Virus record (IMG/VR): IMGVR_UViG_2802429241_000005
DNA: 7,500 bases
Strand: one strand, 5' to 3'
DNA from: a virus
Taxonomy: Duplodnaviria > Heunggongvirae > Uroviricota > Caudoviricetes
Shown: one piece after another, positions 6,130-7,500 of the stretch
How the letters are laid out: the number at the start of each line of letters is the position of its first letter
Numbering within the stretch: the stretch's first letter is position 1
Notes under the pieces: generated by a model
The model's input: only the letters and a program-made list of their open reading frames with translations
What the model was told of the DNA's origin: nothing
The model's database searches: none
Program-made: the position numbers and the translations under genes

Positions 6130-7500
6130 ATGTTTATGAAAAAAATATTCGCAGCCTCTGTTATATTTGCAGTTTCAGCAAATACTTATGCATATAATTC
6201 TTATAATGCCGGTGATAATAGCCAGGCAACTGATAGTAATGCGACAGCTATTGGTGCATATGCAAATGCTTCAGGTTCTTCTTCTACAGCAATAGGCGCT
6301 GTTTCAAAAACCGAAGGAGCCTATAATACTGCAATTGGTTCATATTCTTCATCTCAAGGTAACTCATCGTCAGCTATTGGCGCAAATGCAAATGTTGTTG
6401 GAAATAACTCGGTAGCCATTGGTTCATTTAGTAAAGTAAACGGTGATTCAGCTATAGCAAATGGTGCGGGTAGTGAGGCAGTCGCTAATTCTACAAGTGT
6501 AGGTGCTGCGTCTAAAGCAACTGGGGAGAATAGTGTTGCATTTGGCTCTTCCGCCCAGGCGACTGCAGGAGATACATTAGCTATTGGTGTAGGGGCTACA
6601 TCTACTGCAGAAAATGCTATCTCACTAGGCTCACAGAGTGTAGCCGAACATAATAATAGTGTTGCCATTGGCGGGGGAAGTACAACTGACAGAGAGTATA
6701 GTGTATCTTTTGGGACGGGTAACACTAATCGACAATTGACTCATGTTGCCGCAGGTACTGAGGATACTGATGGTGTTAACGTTAAGCAGCTGAAAGATTA
6801 TACTGGGAATGAGATAGCTAAAAATAATACTGTAATTAATCAAAACATCAGTAATGCCAAGAATGAATCAATGGCATATACAGATCAGCAGGTTACCAAA
6901 AATAATGCTGTGATAAATCAGAATATCAATAATGCCAAGAATGAATCAATGGCATATACAGACCAGCAGGTTACCAAAAATAATGCTGTGATAAATCAGA
7001 ATATCAATAATGCCAAAAGCGAATCAATGGCATATACAGATCAGCAAGTTACCAAAAACAATGCTGTGATAAATCAGAATATTAATAATGCCAAAAGTGA
7101 ATCAATGGCATACACTGATCAGGAAGTTACGAAAAATAACGGCGTTATTAATAAAAACATACAATCAGCAAAACAAGAATCATTCGCATATACTGATGCA
7201 AAGTTTAACCAAATTGATGGGAAGATAAATTCAACATTTAAGCAGTTGAATGATAAGATAGAAGCTAATGCTAAAAAAGCTAATGCAGGTATTGCTTCTG
7301 TGGCAGCAATGACCAATATCCCGTATGTGAATAACCAGACATTTAGTGCCGGCGTTGGGGTTGGTAACTATAGAAACGGTAATGCAGTAGCTGTCGGTGT
7401 TCAATATAAACTTAATGAAAACACCAATATTCGTGCATCGTCTTCGTGGAATAATACTGATGGAGCAGTAGTCGGAGGGGGTATTGCTGTAGGTTGGTAA
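6130..7500 (+). CDS. Trimeric autotransporter adhesin (YadA-like; possibly Eib-type prophage-borne adhesin)
   Basis: 456 aa (or 454 aa from the second ATG at 6136, MKKIFAASVIFAVSANTYA signal peptide). Repeated NSVAIG / TAIG / SxAIG YadA-head motifs; neck-like RQLTHVAAG...GVNVKQL; Asn/Gln-rich repeated stalk; C-terminal anchor ...GIASVAAMTNIPY...GVQYKLN...GGGIAVGW ending in Trp; TAA stop at 7498-7500. Confidence 0.85.
   Translation: MFMKKIFAASVIFAVSANTYAYNSYNAGDNSQATDSNATAIGAYANASGSSSTAIGAVSKTEGAYNTAIGSYSSSQGNSSSAIGANANVVGNNSVAIGSFSKVNGDSAIANGAGSEAVANSTSVGAASKATGENSVAFGSSAQATAGDTLAIGVGATSTAENAISLGSQSVAEHNNSVAIGGGSTTDREYSVSFGTGNTNRQLTHVAAGTEDTDGVNVKQLKDYTGNEIAKNNTVINQNISNAKNESMAYTDQQVTKNNAVINQNINNAKNESMAYTDQQVTKNNAVINQNINNAKSESMAYTDQQVTKNNAVINQNINNAKSESMAYTDQEVTKNNGVINKNIQSAKQESFAYTDAKFNQIDGKINSTFKQLNDKIEANAKKANAGIASVAAMTNIPYVNNQTFSAGVGVGNYRNGNAVAVGVQYKLNENTNIRASSSWNNTDGAVVGGGIAVGW
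6820..7131 (+). repeat. Four near-identical in-frame 78-bp tandem repeats (26-aa unit KNNAVINQNINNAK[N/S]ESMAYTDQQVT) in the adhesin stalk
   Basis: Read directly: units at 6820-6897, 6898-6975, 6976-7053, 7054-7131 differ by a few bases; a degenerate fifth unit follows to about 7209. Confidence 0.9.

Follow-up and report, generated by a model that had tools for sequence, protein, structure and literature searches.

The window, by which we mean the whole 7,500-nucleotide stretch analyzed here (IMG/VR virus record IMGVR_UViG_2802429241_000005, Caudoviricetes), codes at its right end for a trimeric autotransporter adhesin (TAA). The gene occupies positions 6136–7500 of the plus strand (454 aa plus stop) according to its open reading frame (ORF), its Pfam domains and the gene call of the source record. 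The listed ORF begins slightly earlier (6130–7500, 456 aa, with the stop codon at 7498–7500). The second ATG at 6136 (MKKIF...) is probably the start rather than the in-frame ATG at 6130, because both the gene call of the source assembly and RefSeq relatives such as WP_077784021.1 (97% identical, equal length) begin with MKK and are 454 aa long. An exact look-up of the 456-aa form gave no match and the 454-aa form matched the source contig; a protein-cluster look-up with the adhesin gave no match. An earlier note on this DNA, made from the letters alone, described a complete YadA-type adhesin of about 456 aa. Apart from the two N-terminal residues, this description holds. All three adhesin domains (head, neck and anchor) exceed the Pfam gathering scores, a domain content that profile searches confirm as far beyond chance, and the protein is not truncated, being of the same length as WP_077784021.1.

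The order of elements in the adhesin (signal peptide, YadA_head repeats, neck and a single helix) is the canonical TAA order and is consistent with the daTAA rules. The predicted Sec signal peptide, MKKIFAASVIFAVSANTYA (6136–6192, plus strand), was assigned by inspection. Its sequence reads as a basic n-region, a hydrophobic core and a small-x-small c-region, and cleavage is expected before YNSYNAG. Next comes a YadA-like head, a left-handed parallel beta-roll (6196–6720, plus strand) of 12 turns of 14 residues with NSVAIG-type motifs, matched in four stretches by Pfam YadA_head (E 2e-19). In the AlphaFold2 (AF2) model, computed for the monomer with 36 homologs (mean pLDDT 82), the head has a strand at each 14 residues (23, 37, ... 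176), spanning residues 23–178 at a pLDDT of 94–98; residues 1–20 are below 50. Among solved structures the YadA head (1p9h) is the best match by sequence (E 1e-21), and BpaC (7o23) is matched as well. Foldseek comparison of the head with the PDB returns BpaC, BoaA and YadA 1p9h (37% identity).

The neck connector and the start of the coiled coil, TNRQLTHVAAGTEDTDGVNVKQLKDY (6733–6855, plus strand; aa 202–242), match Pfam PF05662 (the 'YadA_stalk' model), and a sequence search of the PDB aligns the neck with those of YadA, SadA and BpaC. In the same search, the match to SadA fragments was confined to the generic neck. UpaG/EhaG-type proteins are much longer (about 1,600–1,800 aa). The stalk (6781–7314, plus strand) is predicted by AF2 as one unbroken helix of ∼178 residues (216–393 of the 454-aa protein), without a saddle or other insert. 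Its N-terminal, membrane-distal part is taken up by five tandem repeats of 78 bp (26 aa), KNNAVINQNINNAKSESMAYTDQQVT, each with a YTD motif (6820–7209, plus strand; Tandem Repeats Finder, period 78, 91% matches). Alleles have 3, 4 or 5 of these repeats and accordingly 402, 428 or 454 aa, their length being otherwise unchanged. According to the daTAA paper (PMC2373917), right-handed stalks of TAAs are located after the last neck and before the anchor, with 3.7–3.83 residues per turn and a YxD motif that is in most cases YTD. Since the repeats of the window stalk combine the YTD motif with 3.71 residues per turn (26 residues over 7 turns), we predict this segment to be a right-handed coiled coil.

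The protein ends with a YadA-type membrane anchor of four beta-strands per chain (7330–7497, plus strand; aa 401–454; C-terminus ...GIAVGW). Pfam YadA_anchor (PF03895) scores 32 bits against a cut-off of 22.7, AF2 places the strands within residues 403–452, and the anchor matches Hia, AtaA and YadA in Foldseek. With its signal peptide, passenger order and four-strand anchor, the window protein is an intact short TAA (type Vc). The NCBIfam models matched are generic TAA models only, with scores far below the equivalog cut-offs. As the YadA model (NF033478) reaches just 114.9 bits against a cut-off of 750, the protein is, by this measure, not a YadA ortholog.

The genomic neighborhoods of relatives agree with the proposal of the earlier note that the gene is prophage cargo. 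The identical protein and relatives at 84–97% identity are found directly after tail-fibre or tail-fibre assembly genes at the right ends of prophages. In a lambdoid metagenome contig (L044), the identical 454-aa protein follows tail genes I and J, Lom, a 986-aa tail fibre and a Caudo_TAP assembly protein, and the DNA is 97.9% identical from window position 5393 through the gene and a downstream insertion sequence (IS) fragment. The same contig encodes a Macro-domain protein (7658–8146) in the interval that separates the genes for the tail fibre and its assembly protein. An ortholog at 97% identity is present in E. coli EC11 and JNEC-KY180, where it follows the genes for the tail fibre and its assembly in a prophage of the baseplate type (P2/Mu-like) and directly adjoins chromosomal uspF. 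An adhesin relative also terminates a lambdoid prophage in RM11911, and five IMG/VR viral contigs carry relatives (84–97%) at their extreme ends. Across contexts (two phage types, an island and a plasmid; L001/L002/L003/L009) homology ends within 1–18 bp past the stop codon and reaches between 90 and 510 bp upstream of the start. The close E. coli relatives came from DNA searches; in the word-indexed protein search, a Proteus protein (55%) was the best among the matches listed. The literature searched contains no mention of the accessions of the relatives or of the assembly.

A gene that directly follows tail-fibre genes might itself encode a structural phage protein, namely a tail fibre or tail spike whose coiled coil resembles that of TAAs. 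PHROG families annotated as 'tail' or 'adhesin' (phrog_17426, phrog_26246) do match the window protein, as do 'tail proteins' of lytic Proteus, Cronobacter and Salmonella phages over residues ∼328–444. Nevertheless, we regard a structural role as extremely improbable. The protein carries a signal peptide of the Sec type, and its beta-barrel anchor is complete and terminates in an aromatic residue. At the DNA level, an AT-rich region of different composition separates the adhesin gene from the assembly gene. Moreover, the gene is also present on plasmids, in an IS-rich island and in the remnant analyzed here without phage structural genes, and it has stayed intact where the phage itself is destroyed.

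The remnant can be delineated in its source genome, since the entire window is identical to positions 3866–11365 of contig PTSM01000003.1 (L043; assembly GCA_002965225.1). The island is about 8.5 kb long and is flanked by fliE on the left and, on the right, by an IS fragment followed by zinT, yeeED, yedD, amyA and fliTSDC. Because fliF of this genome (L043 1470–3128) is only 89.6% identical to the best match in 5,191 E. coli genomes, the source is, judged by this gene, an Escherichia outside E. coli proper.

The left part of the window contains early phage genes, all on the minus strand. A lambda-type integrase pseudogene (1–1113; Pfam Arm-DNA-bind_2 and a partial Phage_integrase) has a 1-bp deletion near position 160 relative to an intact 434-aa homolog that is 98% identical and aligns with this single gap. 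The frameshift precedes the catalytic His-x-x-Arg and Tyr, translation in frame 2 restores ...SRHTYACWSL, and the window starts at the premature stop. It is followed by genes for an excisionase (DUF1233), a phrog_1229 protein and a phrog_536 regulator (1159–2203; Pfam, PHROG). Positions 1–1889 are 97.8% identical to a prophage adjoining fliE in E. coli. Further to the right lies a complete IS3-family element of 1258 bp (3623–4880, minus strand) with orfA (4494–4805), orfB (3631–4458) and terminal repeats. It matches NCBIfam transpos_IS3 (E 4e-84), and many E. coli genomes contain copies with 99.4% identity to it. Directly right of this element is a 5'-truncated remnant of a small phrog_1443 gene (4881–5228, plus strand; PHROG E 8e-38, profile positions 33–96 of 97). 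Such a gene normally comes after the tail-fibre genes at the right end of a prophage, as does its 89%-identical counterpart in E. coli 23CRST032. The earlier note had placed both an integrase and an IS within a few kb of the adhesin. The IS3-family element is indeed only 1.25 kb upstream, but the integrase, a frameshifted pseudogene, lies at a distance of 5 kb. Rfam and tRNA scans of the window gave no match.

No target-site duplication is seen around the IS element (left ...caacg, right gtacg... or ttgta...), a weak negative as the ends are known from BLAST limits only (4878 or 4880). Both the missing duplication and the abutting 5'-truncated late-region gene are consistent with an IS-adjacent deletion, which we infer to have removed the middle of the phage. 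With the integrase on the minus strand at the left and the adhesin on the plus strand at the right, the locus fits a single lambdoid prophage in which the whole interval separating the early-left genes from the extreme right end would be missing. Of the late region, only the adhesin gene was kept intact, while about 30–40 kb of phage were lost. The arrangement supports the view that the prophage is a small dead remnant and the adhesin its accessory cargo.

The earlier note had further suggested that the adhesin might be Eib-like. If it were a member of the Eib family, it would be expected to bind IgG or IgA Fc through its stalk and to confer serum resistance. Eibs (EibA, C–H of E. coli prophages) are likewise short TAAs encoded by accessory genes at the tail-fibre end of temperate phages; they are similar in size and share the same lollipop plan of head, neck, stalk and anchor. 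The genomic slot is equivalent too, and the upstream neighbors are homologous: the product of orf-191, which precedes eibC/D/E, shares 38% identity (E 5e-35) with a 189-aa tail-fibre-module protein encoded upstream of one relative of the window gene. There is no DNA similarity between the eib loci and the locus of that relative. The EibD fragment 2xqh is also matched, albeit weakly, both by sequence (E 1e-5) and by fold (Foldseek, 20% identity).

Despite these similarities, membership of the Eib family is not supported. Best-HSP identity to EibC/D/E (taken from P-Eib phage records) is 25–26% (65–81 bits) and is restricted to generic TAA modules; Kotaka et al. (Nat Commun 2026; PMC13534694) exclude proteins with <50% pairwise similarity. 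The Eib N-terminal domain of ∼130 aa is absent: the multiple alignment has ∼100 Eib-only columns, and in the AF2 model the beta-roll starts at residue 23, directly after the signal peptide. The Eib saddle, a minidomain joining the right-handed to the left-handed coiled coil, is missing from the window protein as well; the corresponding Eib segment aligns to repeat units only, and helix 216–393 is unbroken. The same holds for the Asp-Tyr site of IgG binding ('...RIDY', at the start of the Eib left-handed coil), which includes Tyr388 of EibD together with the Asp that corresponds to D391 of EibG; at those columns the window protein has a gap or SESM-AYTD. In EibG the D391A substitution abolishes IgG Fc binding, and Cla proteins without the equivalent residue do not bind IgG (PMC13534694). 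The C-termini differ too, reading ...AVGW in the window protein and in Saa and ...NFEF in Eibs. The known sequence determinants of immunoglobulin (Ig) binding are missing, and we consider an Ig-binding, Eib-family protein very unlikely. As an aside, PMC13534694 prints the IgG residues of EibD as 'D378-Y388', probably a misprint: position 378 of EibD is Ala, and the neighbor of Tyr388 is Asp387.

Closer affinities are found elsewhere. Among the TAAs compared, the best-HSP score is highest for the TAA of plasmid pKY178 (258 bits, 39% identity), the only TAA on that plasmid, followed by Saa (112 bits, 29%) and then the Eibs. The window protein resembles Saa, the STEC autoagglutinating adhesin (sequence from pO113, located at L041 43552–45153), over the C-terminal two-thirds, from neck to anchor. 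The two proteins share the neck, a stalk of long tandem repeats with a Y-T-x motif and an anchor ending in GW. They differ in that Saa has an N-terminal region of ∼190 aa that is not a beta-roll and a short head, whereas the head of the window protein is a full 12-turn beta-roll. Furthermore, the Saa repeats are 37 aa rather than 26 aa long, and Saa is plasmid-borne. With identity of 29% over the C-terminal part only (versus AAL26283), the window protein is not Saa itself. Compared with YadA of the Yersinia pYV plasmid, it has the same plan of a single head, a neck, a right-handed-type YxD stalk and a four-strand anchor. The YadA stalk, however, is built of pentadecads instead of 26-residue repeats, and YadA is encoded on a virulence plasmid, not by a phage.

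The survey of EibG-like proteins in 13 STEC genomes in PMC13534694 offers a more specific placement. It names Saa-like clades of LEE-negative STEC without the N-terminal domain and saddle 'Yal (function unknown adhesin-like)' and reports YalA on pKY178 and on the JNEC-KY180 chromosome. JNEC-KY180 is one of those 13 genomes, and the 97% ortholog WP_077784021.1 is on its chromosome. The window protein matches the Yal description, being an EibG-like TAA that is closer to Saa than to Eibs and has neither the N-terminal domain nor the saddle. On these grounds it is very probable that the window gene is a member of the Yal group. It differs from the Yal genes of the surveyed strains in that its source is a non-coli Escherichia and in that it resides in a decayed prophage beside fliE.

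The base composition of the locus is uneven, in line with the AT-rich setting described in the earlier note. The adhesin gene has a GC content of 38.6% and the 900 bp upstream 30.2%, compared with 47.7% in the phage left arm. The AT-rich upstream region (5393–6135, plus strand; ∼30% GC), presumably containing the promoter and regulatory elements, travels with the adhesin gene. Together with the gene it is 97.9% identical in the lambdoid contig L044, where it starts ∼90 bp after the tail-fibre assembly gene; other relatives share upstream DNA only from ∼5972.

Such a setting raises the possibility that the gene is intact but silent baggage, for example owing to H-NS repression of the 30% GC upstream DNA, with no phenotype and with its intactness reflecting recent acquisition. 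The very AT-rich upstream DNA, the lack of a convincing promoter and the location in a decayed element with IS activity are all in keeping with this, as is the rarity of the gene, which has a match in 29 of 5,426 complete E. coli genomes. Yet the comparison of the window allele with that of EC11 gives dN 0.013 at dS 0.114 (dN/dS 0.12), the head, stalk and anchor being alike in this respect. Divergence of this extent with so few amino-acid changes indicates long-term purifying selection in the lineage, and the adhesin is the sole late-region element retained after loss of most of the phage. We therefore consider silent baggage unlikely, if less so than an Eib-family or a structural phage protein. 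By the dN/dS measure the gene is under purifying selection, and is thus being maintained rather than decaying although its phage has gone.

Taken together, these data are best explained by a functional-looking YadA-type TAA of a Saa-like, non-Eib lineage, encoded by a phage accessory gene that has outlived its decayed prophage. We assign this interpretation a probability of roughly 85%. A number of observations weigh against one or another part of it. Some copies are outside phages: in an IS-rich island in STEC309 and on IncF plasmids (77–83% amino-acid identity), where one copy adjoins an AIDA-type autotransporter. Proteus relatives (54–65% identical) are chromosomal, non-phage and beside an RTX operon. 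As for expression, a promoter-like site at 6031–6059 and others are not above shuffled expectation, no terminator was found in the window, which ends at the stop codon, and the 30% GC upstream DNA may be silenced, which would restrain adhesin expression in this host. The AF2 monomer is a single-chain prediction only, so that trimer assembly would follow from family resemblance. Finally, the function of Yal proteins is given as unknown in PMC13534694. With respect to YalA itself, the pKY178 TAA, which is at one of the two stated YalA locations, is only 39% identical to the window protein, and no complete E. coli genome has a chromosomal near-copy of the pKY178 gene.

With regard to the Proteus relatives, the RTX operon in Proteus columbae (L030 2341–8138), which lies beside a 54%-identical relative, consists of genes for an acyltransferase, an RTX toxin and a C39-ABC exporter.

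If the preferred interpretation of a maintained, phage-derived TAA is correct, the protein would work much as other family members do. The Sec signal peptide would carry each chain to the periplasm, and the C-terminal four-strand segments of three chains would form a 12-strand barrel in the outer membrane. The passengers would then exit and fold into a 'lollipop' made of the 12-turn beta-roll head, the neck and a coiled-coil stalk of ∼25 nm. The membrane-distal part of the stalk would consist of the five 26-residue YTD repeats, and the presence of 3–5 repeats among alleles would result in stalks of differing length. The head would be expected to mediate adhesion and/or autoaggregation, and complement resistance is possible. 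The secretion route, trimerization, right-handedness of the stalk and adhesive function are all predicted here from the family and the sequence features. The most likely role would be that of a surface adhesin or autoagglutinin, possibly aiding complement resistance, as EibG, ClaA and ClaB do according to PMC13534694.

As for the history of the locus, the gene and its AT-rich upstream DNA would represent a 'moron' that temperate phages carry at their right end, next to the gene for tail-fibre assembly. In the genome analyzed here, the phage has decayed to ∼8.5 kb beside fliE: the integrase is frameshifted, an IS-associated deletion would have removed the middle part, and the adhesin gene has stayed intact under purifying selection. 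A bolder, tentative extension is that the gene has been domesticated as a lysogenic-conversion factor whose function is neither the Ig binding of Eibs nor the chain formation of Cla proteins. In this view the host would have kept it by purifying selection after deletion of essentially the whole phage, and it would move as a cassette between unrelated phage types, plasmids and islands. A stalk-length-variable adhesin or a complement shield would be a possible function in that case.

The window contains two additional features between the left-arm genes and the IS element. The first is an AT-rich ORF of 233 aa (2588–3289, plus strand) with an invasin D4 domain (Pfam) and no signal peptide. Only four clusters in a collection of 5.8 billion proteins match it; they are of similar length and come from non-coli Escherichia. 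The region 2369–3622 has no match in any complete E. coli genome at the megablast level. In Escherichia sp. E3659, an integrase neighbors the invasin-like ORF, and the gene after this ORF codes for a 424-aa Scabin-like (ADP-ribosyltransferase-family) protein, an arrangement that suggests a two-gene toxin module. We considered window positions 3290–3622 as the start of such a Scabin-like partner and rejected this assignment; the partner is absent here. The second feature is a 44-aa HolE-like gene call (DNA polymerase III theta domain; 3481–3615, minus strand, corresponding to L043 7346–7480). It immediately precedes the left end of the IS and probably represents part of a holE homolog carried by a phage.

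Phage-borne short TAAs are already known, and the window gene adds a member to a lineage flagged as uncharacterized in PMC13534694 rather than opening a new kind of system. In LEE-negative STEC, prophage-borne TAAs, Eib and Cla among them, influence serum resistance and the colonization of surfaces. The locus described here is a clean example of a third lineage. Its adhesin gene has survived the loss of its phage in a non-coli Escherichia, and the differences between alleles comprise entire stalk repeats of 26 residues. These alleles represent a concrete gene set for probing the role of Yal proteins.

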